DNA of 63,496 nt, filler included, from Reclinomonas americana ATCC 50394 (lineage: Eukaryota), in assembly GCA_048213135.1 (NCBI GenBank). It is 6 parts of 3 records of this genome, joined end to end, with 100 filler letters (N's around TTAATTAATTAA, not from the genome) between each part and the next. Parts side by side here need not be neighbours in the genome. Positions count along the whole stretch, not along the records: positions 34,308 to 40,793 come from PS015117.1; positions 40,894 to 45,977 come from PS015118.1; positions 46,078 to 60,385 come from PS015118.1; 3 more parts are not named here. One strand, given 5' to 3'. Position 1 is the first letter of the stretch; the number at the start of each line of letters is the position of its first letter. Position numbers and translations under genes: made by a program. Shown piece after piece: positions 37,853 to 60,385 of the stretch. A model generated the notes under the pieces. The model did no database searches, was not told the origin of the DNA, and was given only the letters and a program-made list of their open reading frames with translations.

Positions 37853-39027
37853 ACAACCCTCCTCTCTGAGCAATCGACACCTCGTTTGCCTTCTGAGCAT
37901 GTGCCGCGACAACGACCACTCGTGTCGATACGTGCAAAAAAGAAAAAAGAAAAAATAAGTCGAATTCACACTTGCAAAACAGGGTAGCATTTCGGACACG
38001 CTATATCGAAGCGCGACAAGAGAGATCAGAAGTGTAAGTCAATGTGGGTAGCGCAAAAAGGAAAAAAGAAAAAAGTGTCAACTTTTGCAATTCACAAAAC
38101 GGAAGAGGGTTGCATTCCGGACACGATGCAAATATCGAAGCGCGACAAGAGAATTCAGATCTACGAAGCGAAAGTGGCAGCTGGCGTACTTGCATACAGA
38201 TGTACTTGCAAACAAGATACCGAAGAAACCATGAAGTGACAAATCACACAAATGAGTCATGCCCCTAAATCACAAAAAGTGGGACCGCAAGAGAGCCAAG
38301 ATGGACCGCGTCGCTGCGCACCTGCTCGGCGGCGGTCGCTCCTCTAATCAGAACTCACCGCAACCTTCTCCCCGCGGTGGTCTCTCTGTGCAGTCTGGTA
38401 CCCCGCGTTTGCCTTCTGAGCCTGTGCCGCGACAACGACCGCTCGTGTCGGTGCCGCGCAAAAAAGAAGAAAAAGAAAAAAGTTTTGCAATTCGAATTCA
38501 CAAAAACGTAAAGGTTGCATTCCGGACACGATGCAAATAAAGAAGCAAGAGAAGTGTAAGTCAATGTGGGTAGCGCAAAAAGGAAAAAAGAAAAAGTGTC
38601 ATCAAGACAGCTGTTGCTTGTTTGTTGGTGAATGAATTGTTGTTATATTGTTACTTTTGCAATTCACAAAACGGAAGAGGGTTGCATTCCGGACACGATG
38701 CAAATATCGAAGCGCGACAAGAGAATTCAGATCTACGAAGCGAAAGTGGCAGCTGGCGTACTTGCATACAGATGTACTTGCAAACAAGATACCGAAGAAA
38801 CCATGAAGTGACAAATCACACATGAGTCATGCCTTATATCAGAAAGAGGGACCACGAGAGAGCCAAGATGGACCGCGTCGCTGCGCACCTGCTCGGCGGC
38901 GGTCGCTCCTCCAATCAGAACTCGCCGCAACCCTCTCCTCGCGGTGGTCTCTCTGTGCAGTCTGGTACCCCGCGTTTGCCTTCTGAGCCTGTGCCGCGAC
39001 AACGACCGCTCGTGTCGGTGCCGCGCA
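37853..39027 (+). repeat. Tandem duplication/triplication of the upstream region and first-exon start of the giant repeat gene
   Basis: 38083-38460 is nearly identical to 38655-39027. A more diverged partial copy lies at 37853-37940. Block 37981-38080 recurs at 38512-38601. Confidence 0.9.
38301..38540 (+). pseudogene. Truncated duplicate of giant-gene exon 1
   Basis: Encodes the same MDRVAAHLLGGG...PLVSVPR as 38868-39026, then runs into an A-rich tract and stops. Confidence 0.6.
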
Positions 39028-42000
39028 TTGATTTGTCGGCCATGTATGGTGGTGGTGGTGGTGCAAGCGCGGGAGGAGGAGGAGGGCAAAGTGGAGTTGG
39101 AGCTGCAGCAGTGGCGGCTTCGTCTGCGGCAAAGTTGAGTGTGTTGAGTGAGTGACAGAGAGGACCGTTGGTGAATGTGTTTTCTGTGTGTGTGTGCGCG
39201 CGCGTGTGTGTTGTGTGCGCGCGTGTCTCTCTCTCTGTGTGTGTGTGCGCGCGTGTATGTGTGAGAGAGAGTGAGAGTGCGTCACGCGTTGTTGTGAGAA
39301 AGTGTATGTGCGCGCGCAATAGTGTCTCTCTTTCACTGTCAATCTCTCTCTCACTCTCTGTGTTGCTCTTCCTCTCTCTCTCTTTGCTTCTCTATGTGCG
39401 CGCGCGTGTGTGTGTGTTTGTCTGACTCTTTACTCTCTCACTCTCACTCTCCTTCATTTGTTCGCTCATTTCTCACTCTCTCTCTTACTCACACTCTCAT
39501 GTCAATGCACACACGCTCTCACACACGCGCGCGCAAGTGTTTATGTGAGAGAGCGAGTGTGTTGTTTAGTCGTTCAATTATCAGACATTTCTCTGTCACT
39601 CTGTGTTTGTGTCTTACTCTTTGTGTTTTGTTTTGTTGTGAGAGTTTCACTGTGAGCGTGTGTGCAAGTGAGAGGAAGTGTGTGTAAGTGAGAAGAGAAG
39701 AGAAGTTGTGCTCTTGCGCGCGTGAATGCATTCATTCATTCACTCTCTCTCATTGCACTCTCTGTCTGCTTTGTCTGCTCCCTCCCTCCCTCCCTCTCCC
39801 TCTCCCTNNNNNNNNNNNNNNNNNNNNNNNNNNNNNNNNNNNNNNNNNNNNNNNNNNNNNNNNNNNNNNNNNNNNNNNNNNNNNNNNNNNNNNNNNNNNN
39901 NNNNNNNNNNNNNNNNNNNNNNNNNNNNNNNNNNNNNNNNNNNNNNNNNNNNNNNNNNNNNNNNNNNNNNNNNNNNNNNNNNNNNNNNNNNNNNNNNNNN
40001 GTGTATTGCTCCTCTTCCTCGCGTCTCCATTGCCCATTTTCCTTCCGTATCTTACTCCCAGTCTCTCCCTTTCCCTCTCACTCTCCATCCCGCGCGAGTC
40101 CCCTCTCCTCTCTTTCTCTGTCTTCTCTCCTTCACCATTCTCTTTCCTTGTCCCCCTCAGCCTCGTGTATTGCTTCTCTTCCTCGCGTCTCCGTTGCCCG
40201 TTTTCCCTCTGTATCTTCCTCCCAGTCTCTCTCTTTCTCTTTCTCATTCTCCATCCCGCGCGAGTTATCATTCAGCACGAGCTCCTTTCTGTCGTGCGTG
40301 CGCATGCGTTCGTCTCCCCCCGCATGCCTTCCTGTTTGTACGTCGTAAATGTGTTCATGTCCAACTCCGATTTAAGTGTTTTCTCTTATATTTCCCGACT
40401 TTGCACTCTCGACCCCTCTTCTGCATTCCTCACATCGATGCTGCAATCTTTCCTCGTTCTCCTTCTCCTCTTTCTTGTCTTCTTTCCCTCGCACGCTGGC
40501 GGCGAACAATCGGTTGCGGAATTTATCGCCTGTCCGATTGCTCACACTTTTTGCATTTTTTCGCAGTGCCCCTCCCATCCCACCCCTGCCTCCGCAATTC
40601 AACGTCTTGCCGGCCAGTGCGTCACCGAGCGCCGCTGCTGGCAGTCCGGGTGCGAGTCCAAGTTCCGGCGGCCGGTCATTGACGGCGGTGGCCCTCGATC
40701 GTTCCAATGGCAATGCAGGGCAATTTGGTGAGTTTCTCCCGCACTCCGTCGCCCTCTCGCCCGCTCCTCGTCTCACCCACCTCCCCCCCTCGCNNNNNNN
40801 NNNNNNNNNNNNNNNNNNNNNNNNNNNNNNNNNNNNNTTAATTAATTAANNNNNNNNNNNNNNNNNNNNNNNNNNNNNNNNNNNNNNNNNNNNCTCTCTC
40901 TCTCTCTCCTCCTCTCTCTCTCTCTCTCTCTCTCTCTCTCTCTCTCTCTCTCTCTCTCTCTCTCTCTCTCTCTCTCTCTCTCTCTCTCTCTCTCTCTCTC
41001 TCTCTCTCTCTCTGGTTTCTTCCCGCTCCCGTCTCCATCCCCTTCTTCAGTTTGCTTTCTCATTTCTTCCTTTCCATTCGACTGTCATTCGCTCACCTTC
41101 TCCCGTCTACTCTTACTCTCTGCTGCTCACTCTCTCTCCCATCCCTAATCCCTTCCTCCTTCCCCTGTATTCGCCAGGTATCACCTCCTCGGGCTCCGCG
41201 CTGAGCCTGGTGGTGGACGGCTTCACGCGCATCTCCATGCCCTCCAGCTCCTCCTCGGCCATGTCGCTGAGTGGCGGACTGGCGGTCTCGGGCGACACCA
41301 CCCTCTCGGGCAAGCTCGGCGTGGGCGGTGTGTCGCCCACGGGCACGTTGGAGGTGGCCGGCGGCGTGCGCTCCTCCATGGGCACCCCCACGACGCTGTC
41401 TTCCGACGTCGGCTACGCCTTCTCCAACGACGCCATGACGGGCATGTTTGCCACGCGCACGGCGGCCGGCACGGGCGTGGCCGACACCCTGCGTCTGCTG
41501 ATCAACGGCATTGAGAAGATTACGATTCCGGCCGTCGGCAACGTGATGGTGCAGGGCGGAGGCACGGACTTTTTGACCAATGATTTTGCGTTCGGCAGCC
41601 CCACCACCATCACCGCCATGACCAACATCCGCACGGCGCTCTCCATCAACCCGAACGACAACTTTGTTAACGGCGTCATCTTCAACAGTGGCTTTGTCAA
41701 CTTCTCCATCAATGGTGCCGTCAAGCGCGTCGGTATTCGCACCGGTGCCAGTCAGCCCACGGCCTCGCTGCAGGTGGTGGGCAGTGTGCGCGCCGCGAAG
41801 GGGCCACCGACAGCCGGAGCCGTGCTGAGCGATGTGGGCTTTGCGTTTGATGCCGACGGCAACACGGGTGTTTTCAGTCAGAGTTGCGGAGAAGTGGGGC
41901 GATTTTGGGGAGGGCGGGGGTTGAGCTTGGCACTTACTCCCACACATAATTCTTCTGAAGCGCTCTATGCTGACTTCCTTCTTCTGGGTGTCAGGTTTAT

Positions 42001-60000: not shown

Positions 60001-60385
60001 GTCACTCATTGGTGCGGCCAGCTTGACGGTCAACACGGGCACGACCACACTCGGCGGTGTGCTGGATGTGACGGGCGCCTCGACATTCCACAGCACCACC
60101 TCGATGAAGGACTCCATGTCGGTGGACGGCGACGTGTCCATTATCAACGCACACACTCTATCGGTGACGGGTGCGACGACACTCTCCAGTTCACTGTCGG
60201 TGGCCGGCGACACCACAGTGGCGGGTGCACTGACGACGCAGGGTGACGGCCTGTTTTACCGCTCGGTCACGCTGGTGAACGCGAGCTCGAATCTCACGGT
60301 GGGCGGCGTCACGCAACTCAACTCGTCGCTGCTGGTGCAAGGCAACACGGCGCTGACTGGCACGCTGAGCACCACCGGTGCTGCC
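38868..60385 (+). CDS. Giant (>5,000 aa, 3'-truncated) G/T/V/A/S/L-rich beta-repeat protein, tail-fibre/adhesin-like
   Basis: About 19 phase-compatible exons. N-terminal modules G.LGVGG.SP...LEV.G.VR...G(F/Y)AF..D..TG.F occur four times. From ~53200 there are dozens of TVGTGATTLGGTLAVTGATTL-type repeats in an uninterrupted frame (51082-60385). Linking exon 1 across gaps is inferred. Confidence 0.8.

Follow-up and report, generated by a model that had tools for sequence, protein, structure and literature searches.

Triple beta-helix fibres are a textbook feature of phages and of some bacteria, and the locus described here raises the question of whether a giant fibre-like gene of the protist Reclinomonas americana ATCC 50394 is a domesticated viral or bacterial fibre, as the initial annotation proposed, and what kind of structure it encodes. 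In the window, meaning the whole stretch of DNA that was analysed (63,496 nucleotides, filler included; assembly GCA_048213135.1), we found that the spliced, plus-strand giant gene is real at the DNA level. The stretch at 41178..60386 comprises 17 exons, all on the plus strand, and stays open for approximately 5,380 codons, 299 of them X inside an 896-N gap (50186..51081) that lies within the last exon and has the identical frame on either side. A frame-keeping GT..AG pair was present at all 17 junctions examined, with a single candidate at eight and several, among which we chose by eye, at nine. The joined model, which reaches 5,430 codons with a doubtful first segment and about 5,380 without it, has no stops in its own frame versus 250 and 48 in the other two. 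The chosen frame had the best codon-usage score in 16 of 16 internal exons, exons that were also part of the training set, and GC3 in the joined model was 0.73-0.82 versus 0.51-0.61 at codon positions 1 and 2. The long, intron-containing eukaryotic gene of more than 5,000 aa claimed earlier is thus borne out, as is its charge-poor character: among 5,131 residues, G/T/V/A/S/L make up 76.8% and D/E/K/R 5.3%. No hydrophobic segment above 1.7 was found in the modelled protein (Kyte-Doolittle, 19-residue window). The giant last visible exon (49058..60386; 11,329 bases) is open right up to a 100-base gap (60387..60486), and because the gene runs into this gap, the C-terminus and any S74 chaperone lie out of sight. 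Pfam gave no hit, Peptidase_S74 included, in seven pieces of the visible gene, the C-terminal end lying in the gap, and Pfam and NCBIfam together yielded no significant family for the pieces scanned. No sequencing runs were listed for 51082-60386, which says nothing on expression.

The N-terminal part is built of modules of about 130 residues, and all four motifs quoted for it in the initial annotation are present. Modules 1 and 2 share an exon (41178..41882; this end is preferred, though the computed model used 41876) with a capping-loop-like motif, GG/GSVR..G.P and G[FY].F..D..TG.F, while module 3, which carries an insertion, lies in the exon at 42539..43165 and module 4 corresponds exactly to the exon at 43455..43877, both between phase-1 introns. 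Module 4 aligned to a module profile built without it with a probability of 98.5 (hhalign; E 2.7e-15, 125 columns). We infer that copies of the module accumulated within the eukaryote, each as an exon unit in phase 1. Thirteen exons of irregular beta-rich sequence follow (43952..48974), with a recurring GG[DN]-x4-[AG]G motif, recognised by eye, that introns 6, 11 and 15 cut at the identical place in phase 2.

Searches with the modules returned 47 relatives (best E 2.4e-15), among them unnamed exon-like proteins as well as bacterial and phage fibres, and six of the 47 carry Peptidase_S74. In a Bdellovibrio MAT fibre the module profile matched the stretch that directly precedes S74 (probability 97.8, E 6.5e-13, 85 columns), and it also matched a phage tail fibre that carries a collar domain and phrog_33377 (E 9.7e-6), matches that support the proposed kinship with bacterial and phage fibre proteins. 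Atlas clusters for the module were unnamed and mostly phage-like (0.94). The monomer model of the module was weak (pLDDT 65.6, pTM 0.38), and neither Foldseek nor VIA gave it a significant match in the PDB (best E 0.33, Z 5.2); searching the PDB by sequence brought no useful match. The first module exon had no tblastn match in 50,697 annotated phage records, and word-index protein searches, which are weak and were confined to the longer lengths, found no match to this exon or to the module alignment. Locus searches with alignment A3 confirmed none of 364 metagenome and none of 89 viral contig pattern matches as relatives; those with P0041 as query confirmed 4/330 metagenome, 3/27 viral and 1/120 genome matches, and the five loci that we opened (L002-L005 and L008) were all prokaryotic or phage. 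In the literature we found no paper on spliced protist genes with the N-terminal module.

The setting of the gene is host-like. Its neighbours encode a kinesin, an FAD oxidoreductase, a glutamate dehydrogenase and an LRR protein, and past the gap at 60387 a (GT)n run is followed by the 3' part of the glutamate dehydrogenase gene. A GTTGCG donor opens 6 of the 17 introns in the model (seven with the preferred intron 2 donor) and recurs in the LRR neighbour, at the intron that starts at 62982, in agreement with the earlier claim of a host gene with host-type introns. According to excerpts of PMC12220804, fibres that end in S74 and reach 3.9 k residues are often encoded by the polinton-like viruses (PLVs) of protist genomes; the best BFVD match comes from a phage protein with an ICA domain (E 4.1e-4, TM-score 0.21), and gaps border both flanks of the gene. 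All of this would suit an endogenous virus, polinton-like or giant, whose fibre gene gained host introns and serves the virus or nothing. Against such an origin, no viral family or core gene (capsid, packaging ATPase, integrase, polymerase) was detected among 14 neighbouring ORFs scanned, a selection whose 3' members lie across the gap. The gene also has at least 16 host-type introns, some duplicated along with the modules, and more than 5,000 codons without a stop at host-like GC3, and exon-like relatives from other samples break at the same motif as here. We consider a viral gene very improbable and are highly confident that the fibre gene is a resident host gene.

The domestication of a viral or bacterial gene proposed in the initial annotation would be one possible history; the family itself may be eukaryotic. 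By our own reading, 23 of the 47 module hits are eukaryote-exon-like; these keep the full 130-residue module at approximately 27-37% identity, whereas bacterial and phage hits mostly retain a core of 55-85 residues. A 3,590-residue protein of Diacronema lutheri has similar 12-mers, and the available text of a 2025 preprint (bioRxiv 10.1101/2025.09.30.679562) names giant Amoebophrya/alveolate proteins as candidates for TLP-12, a pond glycofibril. The design may therefore be old and eukaryote-wide, because about half of the module hits are exon-like and giant triple-beta-helix proteins are known from alveolates. Together these observations make it a serious possibility, though one we rate slightly below even, that the gene, together with the TLP-12-type and haptophyte giant proteins, belongs to an old fibre family of eukaryotes that was passed on vertically, with no recent domestication, and that the bacterial and phage forms arose from or beside that family. 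Set against this are a repeat grammar of 21 + 12 residues that is closest to a CPR protein (P0054), the lack of a named eukaryotic protein with the module in word-index protein searches, which are weak, and the fact that the exon-like hits are known as protein sequence only. Such an old family is a matter of origin alone and does not conflict with the exported trimeric fibre that we favour below.

The regular shaft (53300..60386) extends for approximately 2,360 residues. The initial annotation had described more than 2,300 aa of repeats with a period of 6/12; the length stands, but the strongest periods are 12, 33 and 45-46, produced by units of 12 and 21 residues that recur every 45. Periodicity exceeded the maximum of 20 shuffles in all eight shaft windows versus one, marginally, of eight upstream windows, and 28 of 49 motif spacings were exactly 12, 21, 24, 33 or 45, with a further 10 within one residue. 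Threonine (21.6%) and serine (10.9%) together account for about 32% of the shaft. The repeats matched phrog_36281 (E 3.5e-40), phrog_697 (structural protein) and phrog_4549 (tail fibre, E 7e-4), as well as the 3,007-aa protein P0054 of Candidatus Saccharimonadales (probability 99.0, E 6.1e-18), though these matches join low-complexity sequences and convergence could explain them. The 21 + 12 units in common with P0054 support kinship of the repeats to a CPR giant protein. Atlas leads for the repeats were weak, consisting of bactofilin look-alikes (scores 0.84-0.89, 16-28% of members, low recognition).

Structure models favour a shaft made of three chains. A three-copy model of a shaft piece, covering 273 of more than 5,000 residues, scored 0.89 in three runs versus 0.00 for the best of three controls and formed an intertwined triple beta-helix with contacts agreeing in at least 93% and pLDDT of at least 95. 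Its best-defined contacts pair residue i with residues i-5 to i-8 in a different chain, matching the expectation for an intertwined helix. The pass mark was calibrated on two copies rather than the three modelled here, and was reached by 21/30 one-chain pairs and 0/23 single chains from microbes and by 17/29 and 0/30, respectively, from eukaryotes; a pass may reflect memory of solved fibres, as just one passed among seven eukaryotic homo-pairs that lacked an older solved relative. The monomer model also folds, as a single-chain regular beta-helix (pLDDT 76.9, pTM 0.68) in which every 45 residues contain seven short strands, placed as in TLP-12 at positions 4-6 and 10-12 (DSSP). Both models are ordered, which rules out predicted disorder of the shaft and sustains the beta-fibre of the initial annotation. 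The monomer model aligns to EtpA (Z 23.8, rmsd 2.4, 271 aligned), Vag8 and pertactin, as would be expected of a single-chain beta-solenoid adhesin with a stalk like an autotransporter passenger, but structural Z values are inflated for repeats, and Foldseek of the repeat model gave nothing significant (best E 0.33); TLP-12 was absent among the structure matches listed. A three-sided single-chain coil has a period of 18, whereas lags of 12, 33 and 45 dominate here and lag 18 is in the top eight for only one of eight repeat windows. As the trimer is also modelled far more confidently and those module relatives whose kind is known are trimeric fibres, we regard the single-chain form as quite unlikely and the shaft as very probably a trimeric beta-helix.

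The initial annotation placed exon 1 at 38868..39128 and reported no signal peptide, but the ORF there has a neutral codon score (-0.08) and a GC3 of 0.53, and its first half falls within a tandem duplication of 570 bp (38840-39027 copies 38273-38460 at 96%), on which grounds we rejected it as part of the gene. With that exon unsupported, the statement falls in view of a leader candidate further on: an ATG at 40438 opens 25 hydrophobic codons (40438..40512), a candidate first exon judged signal-peptide-like by eye rather than by a predictor. Counting both strands, the window has three strongly hydrophobic ORFs that start with ATG, of which this is one. A well-formed candidate intron of 54 nt (40513..40566) follows, with the GTTGCG donor that the gene itself uses, and then a probable exon (40567..40727) with two neutral candidate frames (codon scores -0.02 and -0.08), a Cys-rich one that continues the leader and a Pro/Ser/Ala one that fits the next known exon. 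The leader is out of frame with the exon at 41178 unless a 100-base gap with spacer (40795..40894), which may hide exons, conceals one. The Pro/Ser/Ala frame of 40568-40727 had also been a candidate for a degenerate module end, which was ruled out as it had no match to the module profile. DNA in this region is pyrimidine-rich, and hydrophobic runs arise in it easily.

Our favoured reading, held with moderate confidence, is that an ordinary spliced nuclear protist gene here encodes a very long homotrimeric beta-fibre, probably exported, glycosylated, and held on or shed from the cell surface; export itself seems likely. Three chains would wind together, each giving one 3-residue strand per 6-9 residues to a predicted three-faced beta-helix, and with the 4.8 A rise per strand given for TLP-12 in the preprint text the regular shaft would measure at least about 175 nm, and all of the protein that is visible some 0.35-0.4 micrometre. 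A cleaved signal peptide would direct the chain to the secretory route, outward Ser/Thr at 12-mer position 5 may be O-glycosylated as in TLP-12, a C-terminal S74/ICA domain would start folding, and the four N-terminal MAT-like beta-helix modules may bind glycans or surfaces. Both protein ends lie beyond the visible sequence; the signal peptide, the S74 domain and any anchor are thus putative, with S74 at the C-terminal end being rather probable. A fibre kept inside the cell, such as an extrusome thread or a bactofilin-like cytoplasmic filament, would be in keeping with the bactofilin look-alikes and with the absence of a signal peptide firmly joined to the frame, but the scarcity of charged residues and very high Ser/Thr would fit a glycosylated exported protein, a leader candidate exists, and the relatives of known kind are surface fibres, so that we find it unlikely. 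Extrusome contents also pass through the secretory route, and an extrusome version would therefore differ only in where the fibre is stored. The extrusome, spine and coat options of the initial annotation are not distinguishable, and nothing points to an extrusome; overall, its observation is confirmed in part and its interpretation supported in part. Adhesion as the main role is a tentative proposal, held at somewhat under even. More speculative, and rather improbable, is that a bacterivorous protist uses an adhesive fibre of Bdellovibrio or phages turned round, with four tandem MAT-like glycan-binding beta-helix heads at the free N-terminus of a glycosylated triple beta-helix stalk of about 0.4 micrometre, to catch or sample bacterial prey, as one of a large gene repertoire within this genome and of an undescribed family of uncultured protists; such proteins would then be one source of unassigned glycofibrils in pond water.

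The general fibre design is not new. Excerpts of PMC3742443 give MYRF/MrfA as the eukaryotic precedent for a phage-type triple beta-helix with ICA, though it is a transcription factor with a short stalk, whereas our protein has no DNA-binding domain, and the preprint text adds the pond glycofibril with its alveolate-like giant proteins. Excerpts of PMC12956863 contain no mention of TLP-12. As far as the preprint text describes it, TLP-12 resembles the present protein in being a giant eukaryotic protein with a 12-residue repeat whose two short strands occupy positions 4-6 and 10-12, with three chains that intertwine (here predicted) and with Ser/Thr at position 5 (9/12 units here, counted by hand in the 273-residue segment). 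Unlike its invariant GSxxSx7, the same count gave Gly1 in 5/12 and Ser/Thr2 in 3/12 units; conserved Gly falls at positions 2 and 8, and one unit in every two or three is a 21-mer that brings an additional strand and a loop. MAT-like modules at the N-terminus and an irregular middle region are added, and a counterpart of the C-terminal ICA/S74 domain of TLP-12 would fall in the gap at 60387; of its dense O-glycan coat, the present sequence offers the Ser/Thr-rich composition.

The Bdellovibrio MAT fibres of the S74 subgroup, as excerpted from PMC10769870, share the module core, as the beta-helix stretch before S74, the trimeric beta-helix design (predicted here) and a capping-loop-like motif, V-G..G/N..P-x-x-x-L, which by eye fits one of four modules, two with a 2-residue insertion and one change, and one in degenerate form. 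In those fibres Bdello_MAT_N (NF053851) follows the signal peptide; it had no hit in seven of seven pieces, a scan that ran outside the 5' end and small middle exons and whose positive control, L008, gave 242.5 bits. The present protein is, moreover, about five times longer, eukaryotic and spliced, and has four tandem MAT-like domains at its N-terminus rather than at a C-terminal tip. Tail fibres of phages, PLVs and giant viruses that bear Peptidase_S74/ICA (PF13884, with S-D-x-x-x-K) have the module core and G/T/V/L repeats in common with it but differ from its host context, introns and lack of viral neighbours among the ORFs scanned. P0054 has the identical 21-residue and 12-residue unit types, but its repeats are interrupted by other domains and the N-terminal module was not found in it. 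If expressed, the gene offers a concrete candidate for protist surface fibres and orphan environmental fibrils, with the 130-residue module as a marker for finding the family in uncultured eukaryotes. It joins in one chain a MAT/phage-type module, used as an exon unit, and a shaft of predicted TLP-12 geometry with a CPR-like repeat grammar.

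We placed 18 coding segments of the fibre gene on the + strand, from 40567 to 60386, with a GT..AG pair that keeps frame present at 17 of 17 junctions; eight of these pairs are unique and the other nine were picked by eye. Because chance alone yields frame-keeping GT..AG pairs fairly often, support for the gene model must come from other features. The joined frame holds no stops in 5,430 codons (299 X), versus 250 and 48 in the other two frames, and GC3 is 0.73-0.82 versus 0.51-0.61 at positions 1 and 2. The chosen frame also has the best codon usage score in 16 of 16 internal exons, though this test is partly circular because the same exons were in the training set. 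A GTTGCG donor opens six of the 17 introns. With intron 2 starting at 41883 the count is seven, and we prefer this start because intron 2 then shares a motif position with introns 3 and 4. An intron of the neighboring LRR gene opens in the same way, indicating that the fibre gene keeps to its host's own splicing habits. Intron starts of the form GTTGCG(T) follow a non-G base at 41883, 43878, 45440, 45941, 46600, 46894, 48570, and 62982 (+) and resemble the usual donor displaced by one base; GTTGCGT occurs at 19 sites in the window versus 10.8 expected, a count attained in 2 of 100 shuffles. We presume that GTTGCG donors are tied to shifted U1 pairing.

The initial annotation began the gene with an exon at 38868..39128 (+), a start that is not supported: its codon score is neutral and it begins in a 570-bp tandem duplication. 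A better candidate first exon has an ATG at 40438 (+) and a 25-codon hydrophobic leader, one of three such ORFs in the window; the 54-nt intron directly behind it opens with GTTGCG. In 40567-40727 this leader reads on in a Cys-rich frame with no direct join to the exon at 41178, from which it is separated by a gap (40795-40894); another frame of 40567-40727 does join that exon but shows no match. The solid gene model thus begins at 41178. The giant last visible exon (49058-60386, +) is open as far as the 100-base gap at 60387, which puts the C-terminus outside the visible sequence. On the other side of that gap are a (GT)n stretch and, at 60487-62072 (+), a glutamate dehydrogenase gene that keeps its 3' part but lacks its 5' part, so that the gap either conceals the ends of both genes or joins unrelated pieces. 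The 100-base gaps at 34209-34308, 40795-40894, 45979-46078, and 60387-60486 each hold a 12-base spacer that has stops in every frame, and 100 bases therefore probably does not give the true gap size. Beside the gap in intron 9, a run of short palindromic GTAC-type repeats (46079-46211) is possibly an assembly artefact.

Kinesin, FAD oxidoreductase, glutamate dehydrogenase, and LRR genes share the window, whose eukaryotic DNA is rich in introns. Polinton-like viruses bring S74 fibres into protist genomes (PMC12220804), making them a possible route of the fibre gene into its host, but we detected no viral neighbor among 14 ORFs scanned. The FAD-binding oxidoreductase (36000-37825, -; FAD_binding_4, E 2e-19) has a signal-peptide-like start and apparently no introns in an otherwise intron-dense genome, and gene transfer is a possible source. 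It and the fibre gene are divergently oriented, and the imperfect tandem duplication that lies between them (37900-39030; spacing ~570 bases, blocks 96-100% identical) is either a promoter duplication or an assembly artefact.

The N-terminal part of the protein carries four copies of a ~130-residue module, each ending in G[FY].F..D..TG.F, and introns 2, 3, and 4 sit right behind this motif, all in phase 1. A single module fills the exon at 43455-43877 exactly (profile match probability 98.5, E 2.7e-15). Scanned in full, the first module exon returned 47 relatives (best E 2.4e-15), 23 of which, judged from their protein sequence, resemble single eukaryotic exons that had been called as ORFs. 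Most of these have the long module followed by an F/L/S/C-rich tail, and in 12 the similarity stops no more than a few residues from TG.F, the position of the fibre-gene introns. The 16 of 23 looked up are singletons without a name, on contigs of 0.85-4.4 kb. The remaining 24 appear prokaryotic or viral. Peptidase_S74 is carried by six of the 47. The module core also occurs in a Bdellovibrio bacteriovorus protein with Bdello_MAT_N and S74, where it lies directly before S74 (probability 97.8, E 6.5e-13). A fibre of similar kind encoded on a metagenome contig has it too (48% over 54 residues), as does a phage tail fibre. The monomer model of the first module exon was weak (pLDDT 65.6). Its top PDB rows were mosaic adhesive trimer (MAT) and T4 fibres (E 0.33), and a second PDB comparison gave other proteins (best Z 5.2), none of them significant; its top viral structure match was an ICA-domain phage protein (E 4.1e-4). 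Our literature searches listed no paper that describes the module family from eukaryotes. Locus L002 encodes a MAT-like bacterial fibre (1-3934) with two tandem module-core copies and a non-S74 tip, adjoining an IS200/IS605-type transposase-like ORF.

Residues ~640-3060 are beta-rich without a fixed period, with a recurring GG[DN]-x4-[AG]G motif. Introns 6, 11, and 15, each with a GTTGCG donor, cut the motif at one and the same codon, in phase 2. These units, like the modules, were probably duplicated after gaining introns. From ~53300 onward, lags 12, 33, 45, and 46 exceed 20 shuffles in 8 of 8 windows, which refines the 6/12 periodicity proposed initially. This shaft combines 12-mers and 21-mers, with motif spacings of exactly 12, 21, 24, 33, or 45 in 28 of 49 cases and off by at most one residue in 10 more. 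A long-protein search over 1,689 candidates returned 14. Most are metagenomic giants without a name, alongside a Saccharimonadales protein that shares the 21+12 grammar (E 6.1e-18) and Diacronema lutheri KFE25_002446; a module-profile search found no copy of the N-terminal module in any of the 14. PHROGs matches agree with these repeat relationships, but shaft matches are low-complexity and may reflect convergence. Among 12-mer beta-repeat giants, the D. lutheri protein has a disordered start and a hydrophobic, type II anchor-like helix near residue 250, and P0051 heads a 20-member cluster whose members are as long as 7,803 residues and whose contigs reach 1.2 Mb.

Modeled as a monomer, a 273-residue shaft piece forms a regular beta-solenoid (seven strands per 45 residues, pLDDT 76.9), and its structural matches include single-chain beta-helices such as EtpA (Z 23.8). 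Three copies scored 0.89 in three runs (best of three controls 0.00), with contact agreement of at least 93% and pLDDT of at least 95. In microbes, 21 of 30 one-chain pairs and 0 of 23 single chains reached the mark, and in eukaryotes 17 of 29 and 0 of 30, a calibration on two copies where the shaft model used three. Just one of seven eukaryotic homo-pairs without an older solved relative reached it, and the pass may reflect memory of solved fibres; it supports the beta-fibre fold suggested initially but does not demonstrate it. The tightest inter-chain contacts in the model, between residue i and i-5 to i-8 of another chain, follow the pattern of an intertwined triple beta-helix. At 4.8 Å per strand, by our own arithmetic, the visible shaft would span ~175 nm and the whole ~0.35-0.4 micrometre. 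We suggest, with somewhat better than even confidence, that the gene encodes an exported homotrimeric beta-fibre: the leader would send the chain into secretion, a C-terminal chaperone outside the visible sequence would start folding of the homotrimer, glycans would be added along the shaft, and the N-terminal modules would do the binding.

In MAT fibres (PMC10769870), beta-helix domains like the module core form trimers, and capping loops flank a cleft. The fibre protein is probably not a MAT: no MAT N-terminal domain was found in the seven gene pieces scanned, and its MAT-like domains are at the opposite end. The nearest structure described is TLP-12, a pond glycofibril of three chains of dodecapeptides, each repeat having strands at positions 4-6 and 10-12 and rising 9.6 Å; alveolate proteins of ~20,000 residues that carry a C-terminal ICA are the candidates for it (bioRxiv 10.1101/2025.09.30.679562). 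Shaft 12-mers share this strand register, with Ser/Thr at position 5 in 9 of 12 (hand count), but have Gly1 in only 5 of 12 and Ser2 in 3 of 12. The fibre protein is not a member of the TLP-12 type but would work like it.
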